24,000 nucleotides of DNA from Kordia sp. (GCF_022447245.1 NZ_JAKVBC010000021.1:42737-66736), one strand, 5' to 3'. Shown: positions 66 to 15,587, counted from the stretch's first letter. Numbers and translations: made by a program. Notes: generated by a model from the letters alone, not told the origin.

Positions 66-779
66 TTATTCAGATTCTAACACATTTTTTTGTGGAACAT
101 GTTCATCTACTATATGACGAATCATATTGCACCAGGCTTTTGAATTGTCTAAAATCCAGGCATCCGAACTGATAGCAATGTGCCCGCTTTCGGCAATGTA
201 TTTATCTGGATTGTTTTCTAAGATAATTTCCCAATGGTAGTTGTGTTCTTCTGTGAATTCTCGTAACATGGTTTTTAGTCGTCCACTATTGGAAACAGGT
301 TTGTCAAAGATCCAAGTGGCTTTTTTGACTTTGTTTTCTTGAAGAAAGTTTGCAATGAGTTGAATAGCTTCTGGTGTTTGTTTTACTTTTTTATAGGTTC
401 CGTGTACGCTTGATAAATCGCGGTAACAACCATCTAAACCTTTGAATAGATATGCGCCAGATAATGCACTTTCTAACATAATTAATACATTAAAACCATC
501 TAGATAGACTTCCTTTTCTGTCAATTGATTTGGTAATAGGCAAGTTGCAGCTCGTTTTTCAAGTTTGTGAGCAGCTTCACTCATTCCTTGTACAGCACGT
601 TGTTGACGATTGTTAAGTTTGTAACGATTTCCTACCAATGCCACAGACGATTTTTCAGAGAATCCTCTACTCAATAAATACGATATATCTTTGATAGCTT
701 CTCGCATTTTTGATTGCATGTTTGGATCGCCAAATAAACGATCGTCGCTTCCTTCTTTTCCTCTGCTTCTTGTTGCCAT
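66..779 (-). CDS. DUF434-type protein with C-terminal PIN/NYN-like (DUF5616-like) module; predicted RNA-binding or ribonuclease, function unknown
   Basis: 237-aa ORF. The N-terminal block REAIKDISYLLSRGFSEKSSVALVGNRYKLNNRQ fits my recollection of the DUF434 signature. The C-terminal half (YLDGFNVLIMLESAL..DGCYRD) resembles the nuclease-like module that usually follows it. Its stop lies 10 nt before the exonuclease-fragment ATG, so the two are probably co-transcribed. Confidence 0.55.
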   Translation of the reverse strand: MATRSRGKEGSDDRLFGDPNMQSKMREAIKDISYLLSRGFSEKSSVALVGNRYKLNNRQQRAVQGMSEAAHKLEKRAATCLLPNQLTEKEVYLDGFNVLIMLESALSGAYLFKGLDGCYRDLSSVHGTYKKVKQTPEAIQLIANFLQENKVKKATWIFDKPVSNSGRLKTMLREFTEEHNYHWEIILENNPDKYIAESGHIAISSDAWILDNSKAWCNMIRHIVDEHVPQKNVLESE

Positions 780-1131
780 GAGATTCGTTTGTTTTGCTTT
801 TAATAGAGTAATTGAATATTCTTTTTATCTTTTGTATTCCGAACTACAATTTTCGGTTCTTCTTTTCGTTTTCTTTGCTTACCCAAAGAAAGAAACAAAA
901 GAAAGGGAACTTTTCCAGAGGTATTTTTAGTTTTTCTTTTTTGGAAAAACTAAAACCGTATGAATTTTTCTAAATTTTAGTTCACTATGCTCTATTTTCA
1001 GTTATGGAGTTAATGAATTAACATTTCTCCAAGGCTTCGAAAATTTTTAACGAAAAATTCCTACTATACTGCAGAAAAGCAAAGTTTCAAACCAAATTTT
1101 TAATATTAAACTAAGCTAATTATTAAAAATG

Positions 1132-1884
1132 TTAGTTTCTAGTATTTTCTACTTTTACACAACTCTTTACAATGGTTTCTATTATTCTTTTCGGATCGCA
1201 AGCATACACGCCTGAACTCCAAACAGGATTTGCTTCAATGAGCGCCCAACCTTTGTTTGAAATGTAGCCAACATCAATGACAACTGCTTCAGGCAATTCT
1301 ATGGTTTTGTCAGCTAGGAATTCATCTAGAAAAGAAAACATTGCTGCTTCTTCATTTTTCAATATGCAATCTTTCAATTGAATTTCTCCATTATAGATAT
1401 AAGTTGACCAAGTTTGGACTTTTCTTTGAATGATAAAACAGCGAACTTCAATTGCCCAACTTACGACATCGGAAACGAAGACTTCTATGTTTTTATCAAT
1501 CGTACTGTAACCCTGGATTTCTTCTACGGAAGTGTACACACCTGCAGGGAAAAACTTGAAATCAACAGGTTTTATAAACTTGTTTTGAACGTTTTCAATA
1601 TTGCCAAAACGATTGTACTGAATAGTACGCAGTGTATATTTTAAAGGAACACTTGCCAACCAATCATCTGTAGGTTTTAGGAGTTTTAAATTGCATTGTT
1701 CTGCAACAATTGTGGTGAATAAATCTTCTCCATAAACCGCAATCACATTTTGTCGATATTCCTGAGGAACATTCCAACTTCCAAATCGCATCGCAGTAAA
1801 TTCTGTGTCAATCGTTGCCTGATTGATAATCATAGAATCTTCTGAGAAGTTTGGTGACAGTACGATGATTTTTTGTGTGTTCAT
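1132..1884 (-). CDS. small ATP-grasp enzyme, R2K-clade (DUF4343-like)
   Basis: 250-aa ORF with ATP-grasp-like blocks FIKPVDFKFFPAGVY, EVRCFIIQRKV and VIDVGYISNKGWALIEANPVWSSGVY (E-x-N metal/ATP site). It shares an ATGA start/stop overlap with the upstream gene. Confidence 0.6.
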   Translation of the reverse strand: MNTQKIIVLSPNFSEDSMIINQATIDTEFTAMRFGSWNVPQEYRQNVIAVYGEDLFTTIVAEQCNLKLLKPTDDWLASVPLKYTLRTIQYNRFGNIENVQNKFIKPVDFKFFPAGVYTSVEEIQGYSTIDKNIEVFVSDVVSWAIEVRCFIIQRKVQTWSTYIYNGEIQLKDCILKNEEAAMFSFLDEFLADKTIELPEAVVIDVGYISNKGWALIEANPVWSSGVYACDPKRIIETIVKSCVKVENTRN

Positions 1885-2552
1885 GATTTCTTTCTATTCT
1901 TTACCATCATTATAAATAGTTCTAAATGCTTTTGCAATGCTTCCGAATCTGCTTCTTTTCGCAATAGATAGTGTTCCAATTCAGGAAAGGTTTTAATGAT
2001 TGCTTCTTTGGTATATAATTCAACATCCGCAAATAAAGCAATCGTCATTCCCAACTGAAATGCAAAGGTTTTATACACTTCTATGACGGAACCGTTTTTG
2101 CCAAAATCTGTATAGTTTTTGAGTTCAATCGTATCTAACAATTCTATTTGCATGTTCACATCTGCACGCAATGCTGCTTTTGCTTGTATACGTAAGTCAG
2201 TTCTTGTAAAATGTCCTACCAAGGTTCGAGCACATCGTACAATACGCGATTCTAAAATTCTAGGAACGGTACGTTGTATATGATTTTGATAGACTTGCTC
2301 ATGTAAATCATAGGTTGTAAAAAGTGCATTGTTCAGCTCGTCAGCACTACCTTTGAAGTTTTGAACGACAATTCCGTTTTTTACAATTGCTAAGTTCGCA
2401 TTCACAGGTTTTGTAGTGTTGAAAATCGTTTGTGCTGTATACATTTTTACAACCTCATGATTTTTTTTGGTATCATTCAAACTATCTACAAAAAAACATA
2501 CATCGAGATCTTCTGAGTTTTTTGAGCCGAATATTTGATATGAAGGTTTCAT
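1881..2552 (-). CDS. predicted Pol-beta-fold nucleotidyltransferase
   Basis: 223-aa ORF. N-terminal FGSKNSEDLDVCFFV fits the G-S...D-x-D nucleotidyltransferase signature, followed by a helical C-terminal region. It is packed between the Pnkp and ATP-grasp genes (9-nt gap and 4-nt overlap). Confidence 0.45.
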   Translation of the reverse strand: MKPSYQIFGSKNSEDLDVCFFVDSLNDTKKNHEVVKMYTAQTIFNTTKPVNANLAIVKNGIVVQNFKGSADELNNALFTTYDLHEQVYQNHIQRTVPRILESRIVRCARTLVGHFTRTDLRIQAKAALRADVNMQIELLDTIELKNYTDFGKNGSVIEVYKTFAFQLGMTIALFADVELYTKEAIIKTFPELEHYLLRKEADSEALQKHLELFIMMVKNRKKS

Positions 2553-2561
2553 CCTGTTAGT

Positions 2562-3443
2562 TTAAAAGTTTCCGTAGAAGACTTGAAAGCATGGAAGTTG
2601 TAGTTTTTGCCTCCATAAATCCACTACTTGGTTTCTATCGTCTAATACGAACTCGATGTAATAATTGTTTTCAATATTGTTTGTAAATAATTCTTCTTTG
2701 ATGATGGAATCTTTTCGATTGTCTTTCGCTTTTCGCATCCACAATGCGTCGTATTCTACCTCATATTTTTCTAACCAACGCTCTGTTTCTGGTTGATACG
2801 TTCCATCTCTGCCAGATAGTAACAAGATTTTAAATCCTAAGTTTTTATAGTTTTTAACTAAGTTCACAATTGGAATGTTTGGCAAATCTTGTTCACATTT
2901 TTTGCCTTCAAATGGACTTCTGTTATTGATTAAAGATAGCGTTCCATCTAAATCGCAAATAATTGCTTTTGGTAGTGAAGCATCTTGGACTCTCACTTCA
3001 TTTTTTAATCTCTTTTCACCTTTTAGTTGCTTATGCATTTTAAGGATGACTTCTCTTCCGACGGGATTTTCGCGTTTTGAATCTCTTAGAATCGCTTCAT
3101 TGACATCAATCTCCATAATTTTCTCTTCTACTTTCACCTGATGTCCTGTTTCTGCTCGGTAATCAGCAGCAATTTGCTGAATACGTTCTAGGTTCGATTT
3201 ATCAAGATTTGTATCGTCAACAATGACATGTTTTCCATGAATTAGCGCTTCTTTGATTAGGAAATCGCGTGTGCTTTTGATGAATTTTTCATTTCCTTTT
3301 GAGAAATGTCCGTTATCCAGCATAGCGCGTAAACTATCGCGATTGATACGTTTATACATTCCTGGGTTTTCTGAAACGAGTTTCTTTGCGTATGTTGATT
3401 TTCCTGAAGCAGGAATTCCTTTTAGTATGATTATCTTTTTCAT
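2562..3443 (-). CDS. pnkp: bifunctional polynucleotide 5'-kinase / 3'-phosphatase (T4 Pnkp-like)
   Basis: N-terminal P-loop GIPASGKST is followed by HAD phosphatase motifs CDLDGTL, LLSGR and LDDR. The order is colinear with phage T4 Pnkp as I recall it (MKKIILTIGCPGSGKST ... DVDGTL ... DDR). I prefer ATG 3443 (MKKIIILKG) to the ORF-track start at 3482. Confidence 0.85.
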   Translation of the reverse strand: MKKIIILKGIPASGKSTYAKKLVSENPGMYKRINRDSLRAMLDNGHFSKGNEKFIKSTRDFLIKEALIHGKHVIVDDTNLDKSNLERIQQIAADYRAETGHQVKVEEKIMEIDVNEAILRDSKRENPVGREVILKMHKQLKGEKRLKNEVRVQDASLPKAIICDLDGTLSLINNRSPFEGKKCEQDLPNIPIVNLVKNYKNLGFKILLLSGRDGTYQPETERWLEKYEVEYDALWMRKAKDNRKDSIIKEELFTNNIENNYYIEFVLDDRNQVVDLWRQKLQLPCFQVFYGNF

Positions 3444-3450
3444 TTTTTCT

Positions 3451-4479
3451 CTAATTAAATTCGTTTGAATACGCTTTTTCAAATGTTGGACGAATGTATC
3501 TCCAAATAATTTGATCGTATTTTTTGTTGTTTTTCATCGCAAATAAAATTGCTGGATATTGAAAGGTTTTAAAGTACGCTGCGGTTTCTCTATCGGTTGC
3601 CAATTCTTTGTACGCTGCTTTTGCGATGTTTTCAATGTTTGTGAAATTAGCTCGTAATTCCGCTTCTACTTTTCGTACCCACGTATAAAATTCGTCTGGT
3701 ACATTTTCAATCCATTGCGTCAAAGTTCCTTTTGTTTTTAAGGTTTCCCAAATAGTTAATGAAGAAACTTGCGTTACAATTTTATGCAATTCAATATAAT
3801 CTTCAAACTTGATCTTTACTCGAAAACCGTTTTCAAACTGAATAACAAATCCTTCTTGATTTTTCCAGTTTAACGCTTTTAATTCTAATAAAGAAGAAAA
3901 GTTATAACGTGTTGGTAATGGAAATCCAATGTCTTGTAATGCTTCATTTTTTCCAGTAGCTGTATCTACGATGGCTAATAAAACCAATTTTTCTTCGGTA
4001 CCGTAATCTACGATAATTCTGTTTTCTGGGTAAATAATTTCAAAAACATAGGTTTTACTTCTATCCAATTTCTCAAAAGTATTGGCATATATTTCATGCA
4101 ATAACTTCGTTGCTTTTAGGGCTTGTTTGCTTGTAAACGAACCTCTAGTTGCTATATATGGCGTATTTTTTAACCAGTATAAAATACCCAATGAACCATC
4201 CATTTTTTCAAATACGTTAAATGGTACGTTTGGCAATTTATCGTATCCAATTTCTTCTACATTGAAGAACTTTTGAATAGGATTTGCTACAATATTATAG
4301 TCTTCATCCAAGATTAATCCTCTGCATTGCAAGGTTTCTTTGGTCCAATATTGATCATATTGCGCAGCTTGCGTATAGTTATATATCCAAAGATTTGCGT
4401 TTGGATGCTTACAGTTATGAATGTAACCATCAGTCATTGCTTGTTTCAATTTTTCGATATGTACTACACTTGTGTTCAT
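3451..4479 (-). CDS. ATP-dependent RNA ligase, Rnl1 (T4 gp63-like) family
   Basis: 342-aa ORF with nucleotidyltransferase motif I K-x-D-G in FEKMDGSLG. Blocks CRGLILD, KFFNVEE, FEIIYPENRIIV and EGFVIQF.NGFRVKIK are colinear with recalled T4 Rnl1 blocks (ECRGIMFE, EKFFNL, TKEDGSL, FEFVAPTNRIV, EGYVAV..GSHFKIK). Confidence 0.8.
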   Translation of the reverse strand: MNTSVVHIEKLKQAMTDGYIHNCKHPNANLWIYNYTQAAQYDQYWTKETLQCRGLILDEDYNIVANPIQKFFNVEEIGYDKLPNVPFNVFEKMDGSLGILYWLKNTPYIATRGSFTSKQALKATKLLHEIYANTFEKLDRSKTYVFEIIYPENRIIVDYGTEEKLVLLAIVDTATGKNEALQDIGFPLPTRYNFSSLLELKALNWKNQEGFVIQFENGFRVKIKFEDYIELHKIVTQVSSLTIWETLKTKGTLTQWIENVPDEFYTWVRKVEAELRANFTNIENIAKAAYKELATDRETAAYFKTFQYPAILFAMKNNKKYDQIIWRYIRPTFEKAYSNEFN

Positions 4480-4518
4480 GGTATTATTTTTAATTACATG
4501 ACAAATATTTTACAGAAG

Positions 4519-4537
4519 TACGCATTTATTTTGCGTA
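4519..4537. promoter_or_regulatory. operator copy A: TACGCAT-TTATT-TTGCGTA
   Basis: 19-bp inverted repeat 40 nt upstream of the ligase start, in the divergent gap to the rhodanese gene. The 18-nt left flank (4501..4518) matches the flank of copy B at 14 of 18 positions. Confidence 0.6.
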
Positions 4538-4639
4538 GTAAAATAGAACGTGTTTTTCCCTCATTCATACAGGTAGTTTACTCATTGTGTATTTTGTAAT
4601 GTATTCGGAATGATTAGTTTAATTTCAAAATTAGATCGT

Positions 4640-5254
4640 ATGAAACTTAGAGTTTTTATTTTTTTAGTGATGGTTGTTTTCTGTAGTATTATCGCACAAG
4701 AATTGCAAACACCAGATGATCCTTTGGAACGTATTGAACGTTTTACACAAGTATTTAATGCTTCTAAAGAAGGTGATCCTATGGTTAGTTTTAGAGATTA
4801 TAGGAATCTAATGAATGTAGTTGAAAAGCATCGCGAAGCACGTTTGGTAGATTTAGAAACGTTTGTGAGTATGAGCCAGCAAGAAGATGTTATTATTTTA
4901 GATGCAAGAGCCGAAGATTTGTATAAAAGCAGTCATATAAAAGGCGCCGTGAATTTACCTTTTACAAAGTTTACACAGCAGAATTTGATGCGTGTGATAC
5001 CGAATCCAGAAACTAAAATCTTGATTTATTGCAATAATAATATTCAAAATGATCCGATCAATTTTGCGTTAAAGACTGCAATACCTGCAAATAATCAACC
5101 GTTGATGTTAGCGTTGAATATTCCAACATATATCAATTTATATGGTTATGGCTATAAAAATGTATACGAATTGAATGATGTGATAGATGTGTTAGTCTCA
5201 AGAATGGATACTTCGTATATTCAGTTTGAAGGTACTAGTGTTCCTGAAAAGTAG
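4640..5254 (+). CDS. secreted rhodanese-like domain protein
   Basis: Signal-peptide-like MKLRVFIFLVMVVFCSIIAQ, then rhodanese blocks VIILDARAEDLYKSSHIKGAVNLP and KILIYCNNN (candidate active-site Cys). The ORF-track start 4610 is an alternative. Confidence 0.65.
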   Translation: MKLRVFIFLVMVVFCSIIAQELQTPDDPLERIERFTQVFNASKEGDPMVSFRDYRNLMNVVEKHREARLVDLETFVSMSQQEDVIILDARAEDLYKSSHIKGAVNLPFTKFTQQNLMRVIPNPETKILIYCNNNIQNDPINFALKTAIPANNQPLMLALNIPTYINLYGYGYKNVYELNDVIDVLVSRMDTSYIQFEGTSVPEK

Positions 5255-5365
5255 TGTTTGATTGTCGCGTAAGCGGTTGAGTGGTTTGTTTGAGCTCCTT
5301 TTAAAGAAGTTAAAAGAGCAAGTAACGAAGACGCGACCACGCCCTAAAGCGTGGATACGCCAAAA

Positions 5366-7219
5366 TTATTTTGATTGTTTAAAAGGTTTTAAGAAACTAT
5401 CTTTTTCTAGGTTTTCCAACGAAAAATCAAAGTCAGCTTGTTCCTTATTCGTAACAATTTCTGCACCTAACATTTGTACAATTTTGTTAAATGATAATGG
5501 TTTGCTCCATTGTTGGTACAATGCTTTTGTGGCTAAATTTGAGATTTCTGAGTTTCCAGAAACTCTTGCATTACCAGCACCAAAGTTTAATAATACAAAG
5601 CATTGTTTATCTTCCTCTGGAATCATCATTCCTAAAATGGTTTGCCATTGTACCGAAGCACATTTCACTTCTGCAAACAAATTATTTGGATTCATCATAT
5701 AGTTGTAATTGATGGAATCTCCTTTACCAATAATGATTTTATAATTGCAAGTTGCACTTCCAGAAAATACATTGTTGTTAATTAATGTAGGCATTTTTAA
5801 ACCTTGATTTGCGTATAAATATTCTGCCGCACCATTTGGCGCATCGGTCATATCACCTGAATACATTAAGTTTCCTTTTTGTTGGTTGTAGGTTGCGTTC
5901 CAACCAATTTTACCACCAATATTTAAACCAGATAGGTCTAAATCATGTGCACCCCATGCATTTTCCCAATATATACCAACGGCTAATTTTTTACCGTAAA
6001 AACGCGTACCAGTTGGAATGTTACCAACATACATTTTTTCAGAAGTTGGCAATGCATATGTTACATCTTCTGGTAAGAAAATTTTCTTGTCAGATAAATC
6101 AAAACGTTGCTTTATATATCTTAATATAAACGCATAGTTTTTTTCATAAATTTCTCCTTCATGCGTATACAATTTCTGCTTTGCTTTTTGCAACGTTGCA
6201 TTGTTTCCTAAGCAAGTAACAGTAATGGTATTTGATTTTACCCACGATTTACCATTACGAATTCTGTATAAAAAGGCATCTTGACCATTCATTCTACTGT
6301 AGCAAGCCGATAAAGCTTTGAATAAGGCAAATGGTGTTGCATTGTCTAACCAACGATTATCATTTGCGGTTAGTAACATATTTGTTACATTGTTCAATGA
6401 GTTTGAAACAAATGGTTTGTGATACTTTTTTGAAAGCTTACTAATCTTGTTAATTGTTTTTGGAGCTTTCGTTTTATATGCTAGGAACAATGGTTTGAAA
6501 CGATTGAAGATTTCAGCCAATTTTTCCAAACCAAATTTGTTAAATGCTTGTGTTGGATTATACGAACTGTTTTTAATCAATTCGATTAATTCATCATTTT
6601 TAATTAACAAAGTTGTGTCCGTACTTCTGTAGATGATGTATCTGAAAAACTCTACAGCATCTTTTGGATAAATGTTATAATACTCTGCTAACTTTATAAT
6701 AGCTTCTTTGTTTTTGATGTTTTCGTTACCAGTAAACTTGTATTTTAATTCATCTGCCAAGATTGAGATCAGGTCATCAATAGTTTCAAAAGTCAATGCT
6801 ATACCAGATTGTAACAAAGACAAGGATTTTTCTTGCATTTCTGCAACTGTATATGCTTTAATGACTTTGTATGATAATTTGATATTAGGAATGTTTAATA
6901 TTTCAGACGGAATGTAAATTTCGCTTTGGAAATTACTTCCATATGTAGAAATATAATGCATTATTTGTTCTGTTAATAATTTGCTACGAGAGCTATTCTT
7001 AATAGTACTCCATGACTTATGGAAGGTTTTGTTTAGATCATTACCGTTTAACTTCTCTTTCTTGTAATACTGGATGATTCTTTTCTTAGCCCAGAGCGCT
7101 TTTTCCTCAATAATATATCCTTCATCTGTAATGAATGGTTTGTTTTCTGAGCTTTTTCCAAAAATACTTAACGTTTTTTCTTTGGCGATAACAGCGTTAA
7201 ATAATTTTAATGTTTTCAT
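5366..7219 (-). CDS. 617-aa protein: long mainly helical N-terminal region of unknown family plus TerD-like C-terminal domain
   Basis: The long ORF is certainly coding. The C-terminal segment AHDLDLSGLNIGGKIGWNATYNQQKGNLMYSGDMTDAPNGAAEYLY parallels the TerD pattern (DLDxSxxxL..GKV..FYN..HSGDNxTGEG). I could not assign the N-terminal ~400 aa by eye. Confidence 0.5.
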   Translation of the reverse strand: MKTLKLFNAVIAKEKTLSIFGKSSENKPFITDEGYIIEEKALWAKKRIIQYYKKEKLNGNDLNKTFHKSWSTIKNSSRSKLLTEQIMHYISTYGSNFQSEIYIPSEILNIPNIKLSYKVIKAYTVAEMQEKSLSLLQSGIALTFETIDDLISILADELKYKFTGNENIKNKEAIIKLAEYYNIYPKDAVEFFRYIIYRSTDTTLLIKNDELIELIKNSSYNPTQAFNKFGLEKLAEIFNRFKPLFLAYKTKAPKTINKISKLSKKYHKPFVSNSLNNVTNMLLTANDNRWLDNATPFALFKALSACYSRMNGQDAFLYRIRNGKSWVKSNTITVTCLGNNATLQKAKQKLYTHEGEIYEKNYAFILRYIKQRFDLSDKKIFLPEDVTYALPTSEKMYVGNIPTGTRFYGKKLAVGIYWENAWGAHDLDLSGLNIGGKIGWNATYNQQKGNLMYSGDMTDAPNGAAEYLYANQGLKMPTLINNNVFSGSATCNYKIIIGKGDSINYNYMMNPNNLFAEVKCASVQWQTILGMMIPEEDKQCFVLLNFGAGNARVSGNSEISNLATKALYQQWSKPLSFNKIVQMLGAEIVTNKEQADFDFSLENLEKDSFLKPFKQSK

Positions 7220-7301
7220 TTTCTTTATTGTGATTTAAAATAATAAGTGAGGTGTATGCTTTCTTTGAATGAATGTGTAATAGGAACACCTTTTACCTAT
7301 T

Positions 7302-7337
7302 TAAAAAGACGAAGAGTACTATATCCACTATACTCTT
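7302..7337 (-). terminator. intrinsic-terminator-like hairpin inside the leader of the 617-aa gene
   Basis: Minus strand reads AAGAGUA-uaguggauauag-UACUCUU followed by cgUCUUUUU. The stem is 7 bp, and the hairpin lies ~85 nt upstream of the start codon at 7219. Confidence 0.45.
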
Positions 7338-7361
7338 TCGAGCACTGGAGTCGAACCAGTT

Positions 7362-7444
7362 TATAGGAACTCTTTGTGTCATTTTTTGAAAACTAACGGA
7401 AAGTAGGATCTTGGAAAAATAATAGGAACTTTCTGTGTCAGTTT
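7362..7444. repeat. two 24-nt direct repeats, 20/24 identical
   Basis: 7362..7385 is tataggaactctttgtgtcatttt and 7421..7444 is aataggaactttctgtgtcagttt. A third ATAGGAAC core lies at 7280..7287. Confidence 0.7.
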
Positions 7445-7529
7445 GTCTTTATATTTTATTTCTAAATGTGTTTAGATCGTATGTCGTATGTACTTTATTA
7501 CTAACGACAGTACAAATGTTTTATAGAGA

Positions 7530-7548
7530 TACGCAATTATTTTGCGTA
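7530..7548. promoter_or_regulatory. operator copy B: TACGCAA-TTATT-TTGCGTA (perfect palindrome)
   Basis: 19-bp perfect inverted repeat upstream of the leader and the 617-aa gene. Its flank ACAAATGTTTTATAGAGA is shared with copy A. Confidence 0.6.
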
Positions 7549-7590
7549 GTTTTAGAGAAGAAATTTTTTTCAAATGTAGTATGTTGATAT

Positions 7591-7898
7591 TCAGTATGTT
7601 TTGGGGAAGAAATATGTAAAAAAAGCGAGCCGAAGTTCGCTAAAAGTTAATCCTGAATTTAACAAAACATGTGGAAATACTGAATTACAATTTAAGTGAC
7701 AAGATCCTTCGCGACTTGCGCAAATATTTGTTAAACAACGATCAGTTATCCCAACAGGACACTGATTATTACAAGATGTTGCTGTAACACAACCAATAAC
7801 TTCTGAAATATTGATTGCTCCACCACTTAAATTCAATTTGCTTAAAGATTATATTGATTTTTGTTGAGACTCAAGTTTTTAAGATTTCTTTTCTTCAT
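7591..7898 (-). pseudogene. frameshifted paralog of the GG-leader Cys-rich peptide
   Basis: Leader MKKRNLKNLSLNKNQYNL (7898..7845) stops at TAA 7844..7842. The rest of the leader and the core (SLSKLNLSGG-AINISEVIGCVTATSCNNQCPVGITDRCLTNICASREGSCHLNC..) lie in the -1 frame from 7848. The two frames overlap stop-free only at 7845..7848. The core frame also reads through its own terminator hairpin. Confidence 0.6.
7617..7641 (-). terminator. intrinsic terminator (UUCG-loop hairpin + U7)
   Basis: Minus strand reads AGCGAAC-UUCG-GCUCGCU (one A.C mismatch) followed by UUUUUUU. It is near-identical to the terminator at 8003..8034. Confidence 0.6.
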
Positions 7899-8002
7899 AA
7901 TACATGATTTTAAAATTGATAATGAATTAAAAGTAACGGATAGTCGAATCTCATAAAACAAACAGCTATCGCAATTTAGTGAATTATAGTAATCTTTAAA
8001 CA

Positions 8003-8034
8003 GTAGAAAAGAAAAGCGAACCGAAGTTCGCTTT
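8003..8034 (-). terminator. intrinsic terminator (UUCG-loop hairpin + U-tract)
   Basis: Minus strand reads AAAGCGAAC-UUCG-GUUCGCUUU followed by UCUUUUC. It begins 8 nt after the stop of ORF 8042..8260. Confidence 0.75.
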
Positions 8035-8041
8035 ATATTTA

Positions 8042-8260
8042 TTAAACTCTTGGTTTGCTGATACATTCTCCTGGTCCGCATTTTGTATGATATTGACATG
8101 TGTGACATTGAGTAGGCATTGTTGCAGGCGGACACGTAAATGTATGGCAAGATGCAATGCAAGAGTTATCGAAGCTTTCATTTCCTCCGAATATAGAAGT
8201 AGATAAATCAGAAATTGATTTTTTGTTTAGGCTTAATGATTTTAAATTTTTTTTCTTCAT
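8042..8260 (-). CDS. double-glycine-leader, Cys-rich bacteriocin/RiPP-precursor-like peptide (72 aa)
   Basis: Leader MKKKNLKSLSLNKKSISDLSTSIFGG is followed by a 46-aa core with 7 Cys (NESFDNSCIASCHTFTCPPATMPTQCHTCQYHTKCGPGECISKPRV). The gene has its own strong terminator. Confidence 0.7.
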   Translation of the reverse strand: MKKKNLKSLSLNKKSISDLSTSIFGGNESFDNSCIASCHTFTCPPATMPTQCHTCQYHTKCGPGECISKPRV

Positions 8261-8376
8261 GAGATGAATTTTAACGATTAATAATGTTCAAATCAATAGA
8301 GAAAAAGAATCTAAAACAATTTATGTAAGTCGTAATTGTAAAAATACGAGTAGTTAAATTTTATAAGAAATAATGT

Positions 8377-8673
8377 CTATGACATTGGTAATATTTCTAT
8401 TACTTTGCCATATACATTTTTTGTCCATCCGTTAATTCTTCCGTGATTGTTTCCGATTAACAATCCGCGTCTTTCGTTTTTTCCTTTTACTAAATGCGTG
8501 AATACATTTCCGCGTACTTTACAAAAGACGATATCACCAACTTCGCAATCTTCCCAAGAAATAGGTTGCAACTTTACAGATTGCTTTGATTTTAAAAGTG
8601 GCAACATAGAATTACCAGGTTCTTTTGAAATGATGGTTTCTCCATCGAGTAGTTTTTGAATTTTCCAATTCAT
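8377..8673 (-). CDS. stand-alone minimal S24/S26-type Ser-Lys peptidase domain (98 aa)
   Basis: GNSMLPLL matches the G-D/N-S-M-x-P nucleophile motif of the LexA/UmuD/signal-peptidase clan. A candidate general-base Lys lies in THLVKGK. No DNA-binding or membrane segment is present. Confidence 0.6.
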   Translation of the reverse strand: MNWKIQKLLDGETIISKEPGNSMLPLLKSKQSVKLQPISWEDCEVGDIVFCKVRGNVFTHLVKGKNERRGLLIGNNHGRINGWTKNVYGKVIEILPMS

Positions 8674-8760
8674 AATATTAGTTTTTTAAAAGTTATATGT
8701 GCCATTATTGACACACATATCTTTTTGAAAACTTTTTTCAAAAGTGTTTCAATGAACTTT

Positions 8761-8775
8761 TCTCGATAATCGAGA
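8761..8775. promoter_or_regulatory. perfect 15-bp palindrome TCTCGAT-A-ATCGAGA (second motif class, copy 1)
   Basis: The core CTCGATAATCGAG is identical to 10211..10223. With flanks, 8762..8790 matches 10211..10239 at 26 of 29 nt. Confidence 0.55.
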
Positions 8776-8843
8776 TTTATATATTTTGAGCTTGCTTAAA
8801 TGTATGAACATACATTTTTTGCACATAACTCGTTGGCTTACTT

Positions 8844-9500
8844 TTAAATATTTGCAATTTTAGTGAAGAACTGCGCAATCTTTTTACGTAGTGAAGTTTT
8901 TTCTTGAATTATTGGTTTTTGTACTATTTCTTTAACTAGAATCTTTTCTGGTTCACCAAAGACAATTACTTTTTTAGAAGAATATGAAGTGCATGCTTCT
9001 AGTTTTGTTAGAATATTAAGTGCAAGATTTCGAATTTCAGGGTTTATTATTGCTGTGTCTTCTAAAAAAGGATTTTGAAACATAACATTCAAATCATAAT
9101 AATAATCACGAAATTTATAAGATATGTTGTACGTTTCATCTGGATTAAAGTCAAACTCTTTAATCATTTTGCCAAGAATTGAATATAGAGTATTTACATT
9201 TTTAGTTTGTAAAATTTTGATACATGATTGCTCTAAGATGAAGACTTTTATAAAGTCATCACCATATTGAATACGAGATTCCTGTTCAAGTTCTGATAAA
9301 CAGCTTTCTGATCGATAATTGATGGTAAGTATTGTGTAGAAAAATGAATTTTTTTCTAGGTTGTTTAAGATGTTTTCACAACCATAGAGAAATTCTTCAA
9401 ATCCAGAAATGGATTGTTTGCCAACTAAGGTATTATATATCTCTAATTGTAAAGTTTCCATGTTATAATGGTTAAAAAACGAGCAAAAACAATTAGCCAT
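8844..9500 (-). CDS. hypothetical protein, no recognisable motif
   Basis: Long ORF directly downstream of the exonuclease gene. The first ATG is at 9500, with an alternative at 9461 (METLQLEIYN); the ORF-track start 9512 is a TTG. Operator copy D lies inside its last codons. Confidence 0.5.
   Translation of the reverse strand: MANCFCSFFNHYNMETLQLEIYNTLVGKQSISGFEEFLYGCENILNNLEKNSFFYTILTINYRSESCLSELEQESRIQYGDDFIKVFILEQSCIKILQTKNVNTLYSILGKMIKEFDFNPDETYNISYKFRDYYYDLNVMFQNPFLEDTAIINPEIRNLALNILTKLEACTSYSSKKVIVFGEPEKILVKEIVQKPIIQEKTSLRKKIAQFFTKIANI
8872..8890. promoter_or_regulatory. operator copy D: TGCGCAA-TCTTT-TTACGTA
   Basis: Same TRCGYAA-N5-TTRCGYA architecture and same TCTTT spacer as copy C. 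It lies ~200 nt upstream of the S24 peptidase start and overlaps the 3' end of ORF 8844..9500. Confidence 0.45.
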
Positions 9501-9521
9501 TAGGCTAATCAAAAACTCATC

Positions 9522-10073
9522 TTACTGATTGTTTAAACACCAATGTAAGATTTTTGCGGTGTTGTTGGCATCATCTACACCTCGGTGATGTCTTCCTTCT
9601 AAAGGAATTCGGAGTTGTTTTAATGCTCTGGCCATTCCAATGCCATGTCGCATACTGTTGCAATGTCTAAACTCTTCTTTGACGTTGATATGTTGATCTC
9701 CAGAAGGGAAATCGACATATTTTTTTCTGCATTCTTCCAGCATTTTGCTACGATCATACGCACCGTAACTTGCCCAAGTATATGCTGAAGCATCATACTC
9801 GTCAAAGAGTATATCAATCGCATCTTCAAAAGAAACGCCTTCTTGCGCTACCATTTCTGGCGTGATTGATGTCAGTTCTGTGCAAAATCGACTGATTTTG
9901 GAATGTTCAGGAATTACGAGAATTCCTTGCCGTTTGGAAATTTCCCCAGAAAGAACATCCAATTCGCAAATACCAGTTTCGATAATCTCACTTTGATTTC
10001 GTTGGTATTCACCATCTTGTTCCCAGCAAGTAGCTTCTAAGTCTACTACTAGAATTTTGTTTGTTGTTTTCAT
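9522..10073 (-). CDS. DEDDh 3'-5' exonuclease (ERI-1/KapD-like)
   Basis: Exo I motif VVDLEATCWE, mid-protein acidic motifs, and C-terminal HRGVDDANNTAKIL (H-x4-D of the DEDDh subgroup). Confidence 0.8.
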   Translation of the reverse strand: MKTTNKILVVDLEATCWEQDGEYQRNQSEIIETGICELDVLSGEISKRQGILVIPEHSKISRFCTELTSITPEMVAQEGVSFEDAIDILFDEYDASAYTWASYGAYDRSKMLEECRKKYVDFPSGDQHINVKEEFRHCNSMRHGIGMARALKQLRIPLEGRHHRGVDDANNTAKILHWCLNNQ

Positions 10074-10167
10074 CTTAAAAACTGTTTTTTTAATAATTAA
10101 TTTTTGTTGACAGATGAAAGCCGACGCACAATTATGTTAAGAACTTGTGCAAAGAATATAATTTATG

Positions 10168-10186
10168 TACGCAATCTTTTTACGCA
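10168..10186. promoter_or_regulatory. operator copy C: TACGCAA-TCTTT-TTACGCA
   Basis: Lies in the divergent gap between the exonuclease gene (start 10073) and the WYL regulator gene (start 10280). This position is typical of an autoregulated divergent promoter. Confidence 0.55.
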
Positions 10187-10210: not shown

Positions 10211-10223
10211 CTCGATAATCGAG
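10211..10223. promoter_or_regulatory. palindrome CTCGAT-A-ATCGAG (second motif class, copy 2)
   Basis: 13-nt perfect palindrome identical to 8762..8774, located between operator C and the WYL gene start. Confidence 0.5.
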
Positions 10224-10279
10224 ATGTAGATATGTTGAGTCTTATTTCGAAATGGATGATTTTAACTTATACTATACGC

Positions 10280-11293
10280 ATGGCAATTAATAAAAACGCA
10301 CTGATTCGATATAAAACGATAGACAAATGTTTGCAAAATCATTATCGTCAATGGACCTTAAATGATTTGATTGAAGCTTGCTCAGACGCTTTACACGAAT
10401 ATGAAGGTCGTGAAGTAAATGTAAGTAAACGAACCGTTCAACTCGATATTCAAATGATGCGTAGTGATAAATTGGGTTACAACGCGCCCATTGTGGTATA
10501 CGATCGTAAGTATTATAAATATGAAGATGAAGAGTATTCCATCACAGATATTCCATTGACAGAAAACGATATGAATGTATTGTCTGAAACTGTAGAAATG
10601 TTGAAGCAATTCAAAGATTTCTCGTTATTCTCAGAATTAGGTGGCATTATACAGCGTTTGGAAGATAAGGTATATACGGAAAAAACACATCAAGCTGCGA
10701 TTATTCATTTAGATAAAAATGAAAATTTAAAAGGATTGCAACACTTGGATTTGTTGTATCAGGCGATTTTAAAAAAAATTGTGTTACGATTAACGTATCG
10801 TTCGTTTAAGGCACGTGCCGCCTCCGAAATTATTTTCCATCCATTCATTCTAAAAGAATACAACAATCGTTGGTTTTTGATTGGAGTCATAGGCAATAAG
10901 CAACAGATTACCACTTTTGCTTTAGACCGAATTATCAATGTCGATTACGATTTAGATATTCCATACAGAAATGAAGCGTTTAATGGAGATGAGTATTATA
11001 AAAATACCATTGGAGTTACGGTTTTAGATCAAAAACACATTCAACGTATTGTGCTTAAAATAGACAAAAGCAACGCGCCGTATGTAACTACGAAGCCTTT
11101 TCATACTACGCAGGAAATTATTTCGGTACACGAAGATGGAAGTATTACAGTGCTATTACAAGTACATATTAATTTTGAATTGGAACGTTTGATTCTTGGT
11201 TTTGGTGATTCTATTGAAGTGATTGAGCCGACATTGTTACGCAAACGCATTCGAAAAAAGTTAGAAGCGGCAGTCAGTAAGTATACAGAGTAA
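10280..11293 (+). CDS. WYL-domain transcriptional regulator (HTH + WYL + C-terminal extension)
   Basis: N-terminal wHTH-like NKNALIRYKTIDKCLQNHYRQWTLNDLIEACS...VSKRTVQLDIQMMRS, then a central WYL-type block FHPFILKEYNNRWFLIGV. The preferred start is MAINKNAL at 10280; the ORF-track start is 10232. Confidence 0.8.
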   Translation: MAINKNALIRYKTIDKCLQNHYRQWTLNDLIEACSDALHEYEGREVNVSKRTVQLDIQMMRSDKLGYNAPIVVYDRKYYKYEDEEYSITDIPLTENDMNVLSETVEMLKQFKDFSLFSELGGIIQRLEDKVYTEKTHQAAIIHLDKNENLKGLQHLDLLYQAILKKIVLRLTYRSFKARAASEIIFHPFILKEYNNRWFLIGVIGNKQQITTFALDRIINVDYDLDIPYRNEAFNGDEYYKNTIGVTVLDQKHIQRIVLKIDKSNAPYVTTKPFHTTQEIISVHEDGSITVLLQVHINFELERLILGFGDSIEVIEPTLLRKRIRKKLEAAVSKYTE

Positions 11294-13595: not shown

Positions 13596-15587
13596 TTATT
13601 TTTCAATGAGTAACATCATGATGTGTGCAGCGCTCCAACTAAAGTTTTTGGCATTTAATCCTTTGCCTGTAAGCGGATGGTAATTTTCTCTGATAGGAAA
13701 ACCTTTTTCCAAAAGACCTTCACAACCTGCCAAAATCTGTAAACTAGCTTTGTCTGCTTCTGCTGTGAAACCATAATTGAGCAATCCTTTGACGCCAAAA
13801 TACGCTTGATCTAACCAATTTGGTCCACGCCAGTATCCTTTGAGAGGATTGAATTTTGGATGATCAGCACTCATGGTTTGAAACGGAACTTTTGTAAAAA
13901 ACTTGGCAGAATTCATCATGTTATTTTTAACACCGTCAGCTTGTACTTGCGTTGCAACTTTTGCCCATAATGGAGTCCAACCTTCAGAACCTTCACCTTT
14001 TATAAAAGTAGTTCCTTCAAGGTTTGTATCGTAAAACCACTGATCTGTAGCATCGTAAAATTGTTGTTGAATACGTTTTTTTAAAGCTTCTGCTTCTGTG
14101 GAAAACTTCTCAGCATCTTTATGATTTTCAATGGCATTTGCTAGCTCGGCTAAGAATAGTTTTTCAGCATATAAATATGCGTTTAAGTCTACAGATTCTT
14201 AATCGAGCGAATACGCACCTTCTACATTTTCTAAAATTTTGGAGTTGTCAAAACGAATGGCATTGTCCATTCCGCTTTCCCATTTGGCGGCAATCAAAGA
14301 ACCGTCAGTAGAACCATATTCACACAAGTCATCTTGGTCATGATCACGTTTTGCATACCACCAATAATGATACTTTTTAAGTTTTGGATACATATACTTT
14401 ACAAAGTCAATATCCTTGTCTTTTTCATACACTTTAGAAACTGCCCAAGCAGATAATGGCGGTTTGGTGTCTCTATAATTATGAGCTTCAATCGTAGTAT
14501 CGCGATAAACGCAATCGGCTACAAAACCATCAGGTTCTTGAAAAACAAACATCAACTTGATTTGCTCTTTTGCCAATTCTACATCAAAATAGGAAAGTCC
14601 CACCGCATGTTTCCATGAATCCCAAGACCAAAAACCATTAAACCATTTGTAATGATAACTTGGAAATAAACCTTCGTGCTTAATTTCTCCAGCAGGAATA
14701 CGCCAATTATTTTGTAAAGTCAAGATAGTTTTGGCAAGTAACGATGTGTATTTTTCTTCTGAAAATAGTTCCTTTTTTAACGTTTGAAGCTTGGTAAGTT
14801 GTTTATTTTTTTCAGATAGACGTTGTTTTACGATACTGTCAAAATTCACAGTTTGAATCAATGCTTGTTCATCCTCCCAAGAGTATTCTGGAAAGATAAA
14901 CGTTTGTGCGCAGATAAAACTTTTTTGCTCATTTGGCTGTAAATCTATGTCTTTAAAATAAGTTGTATATGTTGTACTGTCAATAGTTACAGAAGAAACA
15001 TCATTTAAAAATTGAATATATCCTTTAGCAGTTGTTTTATTAGAATTGACTTCAATACGGTTTCCTTTTTTAGAAAAGTGAATTCCATTATCAAACAGCT
15101 TTCCACTTAGTTGAGGTGTTATTGTTTGATCAGTATCAGACGTATTTGTGATGTTGTTTTTAATTAAAACAGTATGACCTGATAGATATACGAGTTGTTG
15201 TGATAAAGTAATTCCTTCGGACTTAAAGTTTTGTTCTAAATGACTAAGGTAACTTACAGAATTTGCAGGTTCCCACGAGTGATCTTTTAGGGTAAAATTT
15301 GCCAAAGATGTTCCTGCCCAAACACCGTTTTGTTCAGTCATTAAAAAAGGTCCAGAAAAACCTGAAACTGAAATTGTATCTGAGAGCGAATAAGCAAACC
15401 ATGCACCTTGATCAGAGAACATTAATCCAGATTTGTCAAATGCATGATCTGGAGTAATTGAAAAGTCTAGAATATTAGCACTGGCTTTATAATAACTGTG
15501 GTTATTAATGGTTTTAACAGGAGTTGGATTTGACTCACAACTTGCCAATATCACTATGAAGCATATAAAAACAACCTTTCTTAACAT
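13596..15587 (-). pseudogene. (alpha/alpha)6-barrel glycoside hydrolase, GH63/GH37 (YgjK/trehalase-like), interrupted by one in-frame TAA
   Basis: ORFs 14199..15587 and 13596..13919 are in the same frame. The sequence between them translates cleanly (..YSLD*ESVDLNAYLYAEKLFLAELANAIENHKDAEKF..WTPLWAKVATQ..). The only defect is TAA at 14201..14199. Also present are a lipoprotein signal MLRKVVFICFIVILASC and the motifs FWSWDSWKH and SWSAAHIMMLL. Confidence 0.75.

Follow-up and report, generated by a model that had tools for sequence, protein, structure and literature searches.

Transcription factors that join a winged helix-turn-helix (wHTH) domain to WYL and WCX domains include activators of DNA-damage responses and repressors of phage-defence genes. 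Here, we analyzed four palindromes lying near the gene for such a protein in a 24,000-nucleotide (nt) stretch of DNA from Kordia sp. (NZ_JAKVBC010000021.1:42737-66736, one strand), hereafter the window. Among described factors, DriD of Caulobacter crescentus recognizes the box ATACGAC-N7-GTCGTAT, which has an AT-rich centre and is read by a homodimer (PMC10853764). Cryo-electron microscopy showed that DriD sites overlap the −35 position, that their distance from the −10 element does not vary and that the target promoters have no −35 element; on the bidirectional driD promoter, the complex faces the divergent operon so as to activate it (PMC13004042). Other relatives include PafBC, the DNA-damage activator of Actinobacteria, and the phage-defence repressors BrxR and CapW.

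Comparison of this locus with its relatives makes it highly probable, on sequence evidence, that the palindromes are operators of the adjacent wHTH-WYL-WCX regulator, acting as a dimer, and that they are built into σA promoters, which would tie four transcription units into a local version of a Bacteroidota-wide RNA-repair regulon. A link between WYL factors and RNA repair was predicted earlier. The Aravind group suggested from gene neighbourhoods that WYL factors may replace CARF factors at RNA-repair systems, and CARF and WYL factors were proposed, citing Burroughs and Aravind 2016, as possible sensors of RNAs with cyclic-phosphate ends that regulate RNA repair (PMC9503650). The operator, the promoter architecture and the regulon in Bacteroidota appear undescribed: no description was found in the literature searched, which is not proof of absence, and a flavobacterial transcriptome atlas mentions neither operator nor regulon.

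Four palindromes in the window

A preliminary description of the window had reported four 19-bp palindromes, each 5′ of a minus-strand unit, as candidate operators of a WYL regulon. The sites are as follows, with sequences written in the direction of the target gene.

4519..4537 (23-mer 4517-4539), minus strand: operator A, ACTACGCAAAATAAATGCGTACT, 40 nt 5′ of the ATG (4479) of the RNA ligase gene (Rnl)
7530..7548, minus strand: operator B, TACGCAAAATAATTGCGTA, matching the core consensus perfectly
8872..8890, minus strand: operator D, TACGTAAAAAGATTGCGCA, within the 3′ end of the open reading frame (ORF) 8844-9512
10168..10186: operator C, in the divergent gap between the exonuclease ATG (10073, minus strand) and the WYL ATG (10280, plus strand)

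As reported, the four 19-mers stand at these positions with these sequences. The pattern TRCGYAW-N5-TTRCGYA matched the window exactly four times, at 4519, 7530, 8872 and 10168, and gave 0 matches in 100 shuffles of the window that preserved dinucleotides. The consensus first proposed, TRCGYAA-N5-TTRCGYA, described real sites, but site A deviates from it at position 7 (TACGCAT). The right-hand 13 kb, said to lack a copy, contained none even when up to three mismatches to TACGCAA-N5-TTGCGTA were allowed, and relaxation to that level added no window site beyond the four. The two spacer classes were also confirmed, TTATT in A and B and TCTTT in C and D. Likewise, the 18-nt flank common to A and B (14/18 identical) was verified, and it corresponds to the promoter −7 box (AATATTTG in A, AACATTTG in B). 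All four sites lie 5′ of a minus-strand unit; however, D sits inside the last codons of the 222-aa ORF 8844-9512 and thus has no clean intergenic gap.

Sites C and D are conserved among Kordia: the 19-mer of operator D is identical in two relatives (L001 and L003), and an equivalent of operator C was found in three (L001-L003) as well as in most orthologous loci. A small repeat occurs beside both sites. Its two window copies, at about 8758-8862 and 10211-10277, begin with the 13-bp palindrome CTCGATAATCGAG and have a flank of about 33 bp in common. These copies are insertions of about 65-100 bp, one between operator D and the S24-like gene and the other between operator C and the WYL start codon; the former is absent from L003 and the latter from L001-L003. 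They may be similar to miniature inverted-repeat transposable elements (MITEs). CTCGATAATCGAG was considered as a second operator and rejected, because it sits in insertions missing from close relatives.

Palindromes at orthologous loci

We then compared the window with 80 genomic loci around WYL orthologues, taking 10 kb on either side (81 loci in total), using the strict pattern TRCGYA-N7-TRCGYA. Motif counts thus cover these loci, together with the metagenome and viral contigs described below, and further sites may lie elsewhere on the chromosome. Strict copies numbered 158, all of which lay on the side of the regulator gene that carries the divergent cargo genes (690 kb), with 0 on the other side (694 kb), and 153 of the 158 were intergenic. 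Loci with the motif span Kordia, Aquimarina, Flavobacterium, Fluviicola, Saprospiraceae, Chitinophagales and Flammeovirga. At zero to two mismatches, the core gave 153 sites on the cargo side against 0 on the other, and a background emerged only at three mismatches (53 against 14). First-order Markov simulations of the 81 loci yielded 0-2 strict matches, compared with the 158 observed. Sites stood beside the orthologous WYL gene, on the cargo side only, in 79/81 loci.

Alignment of the sites from the 81 loci resolved a 23-bp palindrome, ACTACGCAA-N5-TTGCGTAGT. The 19-bp palindrome first described is therefore real, but it is the core of an element whose conservation reaches 2 bp further on each side. 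The spacer of the 23-bp element is asymmetric, with an A-rich 5′ side in the direction of the regulated gene, and this also applies to targets on the opposite strand.

The sites are also retained at individual orthologous promoters. Rnl orthologues are 49-85% identical, and 9/11 of them carry a site 36-40 nt before the ATG; sites likewise precede orthologues, in other genera, of the 617-aa window protein described below. The WYL regulator is the sole DNA-binding protein common to the loci, whereas the cargo varies, even among close Kordia relatives, of which the nearest has RtcB and the window none. A varying cargo beside a constant regulator and operator indicates a variable-cargo island. Assignment of the motif to the neighbouring WYL protein, which the preliminary description had offered as inference, is thus supported at the sequence level by the cargo-side sites, by a site in the regulator's own promoter in 64/81 loci and by DriD-like geometry.

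The WYL regulator

The candidate regulator gene is located beside operator C.

10280..11293, plus strand: regulator with wHTH-(helical linker)-WYL-WCX organization, 337 aa

The gene most likely begins at the ATG at 10280 (MAINKNALIRY...), in agreement with all orthologues. Within a 353-aa ORF, the WYL domain (PF13280, E 1.8e-13) covers residues 171-237, and the C-terminal WCX dimerisation domain (PF25583, E 1.8e-15) covers residues 271-347. Regulators are 60-94% identical across Bacteroidota, and the N-terminal DNA-binding part is nearly invariant and the most invariant region of the protein. An AlphaFold2 model gave a predicted local distance difference test score (pLDDT) of 64 overall, rising to 82-91 across the wHTH and falling below 40 along the helical linker. 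Residues 2-81 of the model form three helices and a beta wing (pLDDT 82-91), matching a wHTH, and linker helices are predicted at residues 95-109, 114-136 and 153-164, where pLDDT is only 27-38. The N-terminal 131 aa alone gave no relevant match against PDB sequences, so the base-reading residues are not alignable with Arg37 and Arg41 of DriD. By sequence, the best solved relatives were the DriD C-domain and full-length DriD (E about 2e-5), followed by PafC. Foldseek searches with the model ranked DriD and PafBC first (2e-11 to 2e-10), followed by CapW (2e-7) and BrxR (1e-6), with the listed CapW and BrxR matches ranging from 2e-7 to 1e-5; the full-length alignments to all four agree with the wHTH assignment. 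These sequence and model comparisons suggest that the regulator is closest to DriD and PafBC, with DriD, and not BrxR or CapW, as the best analogue.

Palindromes are embedded in σA promoters

The flavobacterial σA −7 box, TAnnTTTG, lies at −12 to −5 (PMC9723704). In the direction of the downstream gene, the TTTG of such a box ended 17 or 18 nt past the 19-mer in 147/155 sites, including all four in the window, for which the boxes are listed here.

4502..4509, minus strand: −7 box of promoter A, AATATTTG, G 17 nt after the operator, predicted transcription start site about 4497
7513..7520, minus strand: −7 box of promoter B, AACATTTG, predicted transcription start site about 7508
8855..8862, minus strand: −7 box of promoter D, TAAAATTG, G 17 nt after the operator
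10150..10157, minus strand: −7 box of the exonuclease promoter (C), ATTCTTTG, G 18 nt after the operator

Given this distance and the −12 to −5 position of the box, the 19-mer would fall at about −40 to −22, the place of the −33 element, and the site consensus contains no TTG at the canonical distance of that element. Target −7 boxes are sub-consensus, with the first T present in only 10% and AATCTTTG as the commonest form. On the regulator side of proximal sites, by comparison, a perfect TAnnTTTG ended 23 nt from the site in 28/32 cases; the regulator's own promoter is thus consensus and stands 6 bp further from the site than target promoters do. In the window, the site within the promoter of the regulator's own transcription unit is site C. 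Among the 64 loci with such a site, it lies directly upstream of the regulator in 40; in 24, mostly Flavobacterium, a 204-aa gene stands ahead of the regulator, with the site about 36 nt before the start of that gene. This conserved 204-aa protein (L052:9229-9843 and 23 other, mostly Flavobacterium, loci) has no Pfam domain, is encoded directly upstream of the WYL gene in the same direction, and may be a partner or co-sensor.

Comparison with described WYL regulators

The resemblance to DriD extends from the protein to the promoter. Domain order and size are similar in the regulator (337 aa) and in DriD, a wHTH-three-helix-bundle-WYL-WCX activator of 327 aa. TACGCA-N7-TGCGTA here and TACGAC-N7-GTCGTA in DriD follow one scheme, TACG-N11-CGTA, in which 13 bp separate the CG dinucleotides and the centre is AT-rich (PMC10853764). 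In both systems, the site overlaps the −35 or −33 equivalent at a fixed distance from the −10 or −7 box, in targets without a −35 or −33 element, and a bidirectional-promoter site serves a divergent operon (PMC13004042), much as the site here stands in the regulator's own promoter in 64/81 loci. The two differ in several respects: identity is about 17-20% and detectable by sequence in the WYL-WCX part only, the half-site is CGCAA rather than CGAC, and the promoter is of the Bacteroidetes σA type (−7 TAnnTTTG). The regulon here concerns RNA repair (RtcB, Rnl/Pnkp, Hen1, Ro60, PrfH and tRNA-like RNAs), whereas that of DriD concerns DNA damage (didA, recA, recJ and bapE).

PafBC, the second-best structural match, is likewise a wHTH-WYL-WCX activator acting in place of the −35 element. 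However, it is a heterodimer or a fusion, uses a non-palindromic −26 element and does not bind DNA without RNA polymerase (PMC10853764, PMC13004042), whereas the symmetric 23-bp palindrome here implies a homodimer. The preliminary description had cited PafBC, BrxR and CapW together as WYL regulators of palindromic sites; this is correct for BrxR and CapW but not for PafBC (PMC10853764), and DriD is a better analogue than any of them. BrxR and CapW do share with the present system the wHTH-WYL-WCX organization, palindromic promoter operators and variable adjacent cargo. They differ in being repressors of about 270-290 aa with weaker matches, and their cargo is BREX or CBASS, in place of the RNA-repair genes seen here.

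Genes downstream of the palindromes

Three of the window units are listed first; operator B and its 617-aa gene follow in the next section. Unit A was delimited from Pfam matches and from co-oriented overlapping or adjacent ORFs, so its extent as an operon is presumptive.

66..4479, minus strand: unit A
3451-4479, minus strand: Rnl1-type RNA ligase, unit A
2562-3482, minus strand: Pnkp kinase/phosphatase, unit A
1881-2552, minus strand: 223-aa uncharacterized protein, unit A
1132-1884, minus strand: R2K ATP-grasp protein, unit A
7591..8673, minus strand: unit D, in which two peptide genes follow the gene of a 98-aa S24/S26-like protein (8377-8673; GNSMLP motif)
8042-8260 and about 7591-7898, minus strand: the peptide genes of unit D, each with a double-glycine leader MKKKNLKSLSLNKKSISDLSTSIFGG and a Cys-rich core, and the hairpin AGCGARCCGAAGTTCGCT after each
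8844..10073, minus strand: unit C, a DEDDh/RNase T-type exonuclease (9522-10073) and a 222-aa uncharacterized protein (8844-9512)

A DUF434/DUF5616 gene (66-779, minus strand) may also belong to unit A, past a 350-bp gap. The nucleotidyltransferase label given earlier to the 223-aa protein found no support: the protein had no Pfam, NCBIfam or PADLOC match and no similarity to RlaP. The 98-aa S24-like and 222-aa proteins had no family matches. PADLOC searches of the cargo proteins tested gave no meaningful defence-system match beyond generic models for CRISPR-associated WYL and DEDDh proteins, and domain searches of window proteins found neither RtcB, nor a CARF-AAA+ RtcR, nor a transposase adjoining the sites. 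The peptide genes weakly matched a lanthipeptide-leader model, below its cutoff, and the second (about 7591-7898) is apparently frameshifted between leader and core.

Across the 158 sites of the 81 loci, the first genes downstream were counted as follows.

RtcB: 52 of the 158 sites, the commonest
747-aa prokaryotic-RING protein, behind a leader of about 500 nt: 23 sites
Rnl: 9 sites
Ro60 (TROVE and vWA domains): 8 sites
SPFH protein, behind leaders of 600-900 nt: 5 sites
RlaP: 5 sites
exonuclease: 4 sites
Hen1: 4 sites
S24-like protein: 3 sites

PrfH, the release-factor partner of RtcB, also occurs within the islands. Thus, the sites do precede the units of the island, as first described, but its content is RNA repair and not that of a generic island. 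The 747-aa RING protein (L031:1587-3830 and 20 other loci) showed a sub-threshold match to the MXAN_6230/SCO0854 RING family, and its gene always lies behind a leader of about 500 nt with one or two tRNA-like elements. In one WYL/RNA-repair island (L078:4520-4620, minus strand), a Flavo-1 RNA, an orphan Rfam motif (RF01705; 43.8 bits against a gathering threshold of 42), stands beside the Rnl operon.

This gene content can be compared with the RtcR-controlled rsr-yrlBA-rtcBA operon of Salmonella and E. coli, in which RtcB, Ro60 and tRNA-like Y RNAs are co-transcribed with repair genes and which is accompanied by the gene of its own nucleic-acid-sensing regulator (PMC7790460, PMC4201824). RtcR differs in being a CARF-AAA+ enhancer-binding protein of σ54, whereas a WYL factor and σA-type −7 boxes are found here; further, the window lacks RtcB and instead has the Rnl-Pnkp pathway, which is of the 5′-phosphate ligase type.

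The right-hand genes of the window are unrelated housekeeping genes for a glycosidase, peptidases, proline metabolism and a LytTR two-component system. Two adjacent minus-strand ORFs among them, 13596-13919 and 14199-15587, match the C- and N-terminal parts of one MGH1-like glycoside hydrolase, which is apparently split or frameshifted.

The 617-aa protein and its leader RNA

Operator B precedes a leader and the gene of a 617-aa protein, here called P617.

5366..7219, minus strand: P617, a 617-aa conserved hypothetical protein, preceded by a 311-nt leader
7220..7508, minus strand: leader or non-coding RNA in which the GUUCCUAU module occurs three times (plus-strand ATAGGAAC at 7280, 7363 and 7422), each time as a bulged helix

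P617 had no Pfam, NCBIfam or PADLOC match, its AlphaFold2 model was poor (pLDDT 60), and Foldseek against the PDB found nothing below E 0.3. A divergent Ro60/TROVE protein was considered and rejected, as neither a TROVE domain nor any other family or fold match was obtained. Both P617 genes of the first set of loci have a site ahead of the leader, as do orthologues in Winogradskyella and Tenacibaculum; the operator likewise precedes the orthologues in L004, L205 and L206. The orthologues sit in islands with RtcB, PrfH, RlaP and WYL genes; the islands of Winogradskyella and Tenacibaculum have RtcB, PrfH, R2K and DUF434 genes.

We compared the P617 leaders of the window (7220-7508), L004 (8174-8419), L203 (5628-6000), L205 (4075-6000) and L206 (5565-6000). 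The modules take the form GAC-ACA-[xxxxGU]-UCCUAU...[ACxxxx]-C-GUY and are repeated in the window and in the orthologue leaders, across five genera. A perfectly complementary partner strand was present in 16/20 modules, always followed by C. All four variable pairs of the module helix showed A-U to G-C exchanges between modules and genera, and non-cognate strands paired in 15% of comparisons. GTTCCTAT is specific to P617 leaders. In the window, a tRNA-like T-arm (7344-7360) caps the middle module, which is followed by a hairpin and a U-run (about 7303-7340). The minimum free energy fold of the leader had z = −3.3 and did not recover the tRNA-like element. Neither Rfam (gathering thresholds, and to E 10 for the leader) nor ARAGORN found anything in the window leader or the rest of the island. 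Relatives carry a full tRNA-like element.

More generally, long leaders behind operators contain tRNA-like T-arms at about 30 times the background density, and one (L065) scores as a tRNA with an insert of about 50 nt in the anticodon arm, an architecture like that of YrlA. Similar to YrlA-type Y RNAs, the leaders at site B and in relatives join bulged helices with tRNA-like T- and D-arm elements. Unlike YrlA, the window leader has no Rfam match, its GUUCCUAU module is specific to P617 leaders, and P617 is not a TROVE/Ro60 protein, although related loci do have Ro60. The leader may be a Y-RNA-like partner of P617.

Arrays of 3-18 tRNA genes were observed in the islands of about 17 related loci (e.g. 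L006, L007, L008, L010, L014, L021, L029, L031, L034, L044 and L048). On the cargo side, 144 such genes were counted (143 on the cargo strand), compared with 10 on the opposite side; the window has none. The commonest were Leu(tag), Ser(gct), Gln, Cys, Pro, Tyr, His, Phe and Asp. Most arrays do not lie directly behind a strict operator, so the relation is an association only; the array tRNAs may be spares against tRNA-cleaving toxins.

Occurrence of the motif outside the sampled loci

A motif-first scan with the 23-mer alone returned 122 contigs, comprising 120 from metagenomes and 2 viral. The motif adjoined the WYL orthologue (52 contigs) and/or RtcB, 747-aa RING, Rnl, Pnkp, Hen1, Ro60, RlaP or SPFH genes in 68 of the 122, many contigs being short. 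Among the 54 others were 21 matches inside ORFs, mostly on GC-rich contigs, which are taken as chance given the size of the collection. The two matches in the viral collection, inside ORFs on GC-rich contigs, were also taken as chance.

In three contigs, the divergent promoter that contains the 23-mer belongs to the gene of a paralogous WYL protein. This paralogous WYL-WCX family (L099:113-1111, L128:6808-7806, L173:1750-2751) is 31% identical to the regulator, and its 23-mer stands beside a gene for an uncharacterized protein of 143-148 aa. The recognition helix, VSKRTVQLD, is the same as in the regulator, and the paralogue spacers are ATACA or ATCCA. The same palindrome was seen 120-140 nt upstream of recA (two matches) and 20 nt upstream of a gyrB-like gene (one match) (L174:1368, L185:2045, L098:1486). 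The family may represent a DriD-like DNA-damage regulon in Bacteroidota. In addition, IS1595-family transposase genes are flanked by ACTACGCAATGTATTTGCGYAGT, a match to the operator consensus (L086:4397, L184:1366, L188:27 and 1082), on both ends in L188. The motif is therefore not exclusive to the regulon, and its dominant context is this regulator together with RNA-repair genes.

Discussion

We strongly infer that the regulator binds the palindrome as a dimer. No other DNA-binding protein is constant across the loci, the DNA-binding domain of the regulator varies as little as the operator does, and the same palindrome accompanies a paralogue whose recognition helix is identical. Each operator would occupy about −40 to −22 of a σA promoter and replace the −33 element. 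A single regulon would then unite the Rnl-Pnkp-ATP-grasp genes, the Y-RNA-like leader with P617, the S24-like protein with the Cys-rich peptides, and the exonuclease with the 222-aa protein. We propose that a nucleic-acid damage signal would bind the WYL domain, whereupon the dimer would recruit RNA polymerase to intrinsically weak promoters; the divergent-promoter site would serve the cargo side. If the protein binds as proposed, a DriD-like activator is somewhat favoured over a repressor, given the weak target promoters compared with the consensus promoter of the regulator itself, the invariant spacing, and the closer kinship to DriD and PafBC. Such constant spacing between operator and box is in keeping with the regulator touching RNA polymerase stereospecifically. 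Damaged or cleaved RNA is a plausible signal, and single-stranded DNA (ssDNA) is also possible. An RNA ligand is speculative, being argued from the regulon content and by analogy with RtcR, which senses tRNA fragments (PMC7790460).

Several observations weigh against this interpretation. All characterised nucleic-acid-sensing WYL transcription factors bind ssDNA (PMC9186387, PMC11804915, PMC11662680). The regulator model is of low confidence (pLDDT 64, linker below 40), so that the ranking of DriD over CapW is soft. Among the sampled loci, no strict site was found near S24-like or exonuclease orthologues outside Kordia, and the islands of Chryseobacterium have degenerate sites only. Furthermore, the paralogous WYL family, with its identical recognition helix and palindrome, makes cross-binding possible. 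Lastly, CapW and BrxR are themselves wHTH-WYL-WCX repressors on promoter palindromes, and CapW is released by ssDNA (PMC11662680).

The last point would suit a regulator that acts on the same sites as a BrxR/CapW-type repressor, blocking RNA polymerase at −40 to −22 until a damage signal releases it. Overlap of the operator with the promoter core is in keeping with such a block, and surveys from the Aravind laboratory treat WYL factors of conflict systems as negative regulators (PMC9503650). Nevertheless, the target −7 boxes mostly lack the consensus first T and the promoters have no −33 element, whereas the regulator's own promoter is consensus. The spacing is constant within 1 bp over 147 promoters of unrelated genes, which a steric block does not need; DriD and PafBC outscore CapW and BrxR, and, as far as the model allows, the 337-aa length and helical linker match DriD. 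We thus regard repression as less likely, though it is the strongest of the competitors. A different factor, for example the 31%-identical paralogue, could instead be the main protein bound to the palindrome, with the neighbouring WYL gene as a passenger. The common recognition helix, the 23-mer in the paralogue's divergent promoter and the 23-mers upstream of recA and the gyrB-like gene in metagenome contigs all speak for this. It is nonetheless improbable: loci chosen only by their orthologous WYL gene have sites beside that gene, on the cargo side only, in 79/81 cases, 64/81 have a site in the regulator's own promoter, the regulator varies least in its N-terminal DNA-binding region, which matches an invariant operator, and the paralogue sites belong to different spacer classes (ATACA or ATCCA).

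Least probable is that the palindromes are not operators at all, but transposon ends or repeats of the MITE type, or else hairpins in RNA that act, for example, in termination or processing. Near-identical 23-mers do flank IS1595-family transposase genes (L086, L184 and L188), and small inserted repeats adjoin window sites C and D. Yet no transposase is adjacent in the window, and the sites precede the −7 box and are thus not transcribed from the promoters they accompany. Their position relative to promoters of many different genes is fixed across the phylum; the inserts differ in sequence (CTCGATAATCGAG), and operators are conserved where the inserts are absent.

Beyond the operator assignment, we offer a wider picture, tentatively and with the balance somewhat against it: throughout the phylum, the regulator could act as the master switch of an "RNA-damage SOS response", sensing broken RNA (tRNA halves or 2′,3′-cyclic-phosphate ends) and activating mobile, variable repair modules in a DriD-like manner. 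Such modules would include the spare tRNA arrays of relatives and, here, a new ribonucleoprotein of P617 with its GUUCCUAU/tRNA-like RNA.

The RtcR/σ54 switch that controls RNA repair in enterobacteria is apparently lacking in Bacteroidota, and the regulation of RtcB, Rnl/Pnkp, Hen1, Ro60 and PrfH in this phylum was not described in the literature searched. The operator is a precise, testable cis-element, and it provides a definition of the regulon that is transferable across the phylum. It also flags candidates for RNA repair or surveillance, namely P617 with its modular RNA, the 747-aa RING protein and the 204-aa partner gene. With this system, the unusual promoter architecture of DriD would gain a second and independent case, under a different σA promoter grammar. 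To our knowledge, all characterised WYL factors sense ssDNA or c-di-GMP; the regulon described here therefore offers a natural system for asking whether a WYL domain senses RNA damage.

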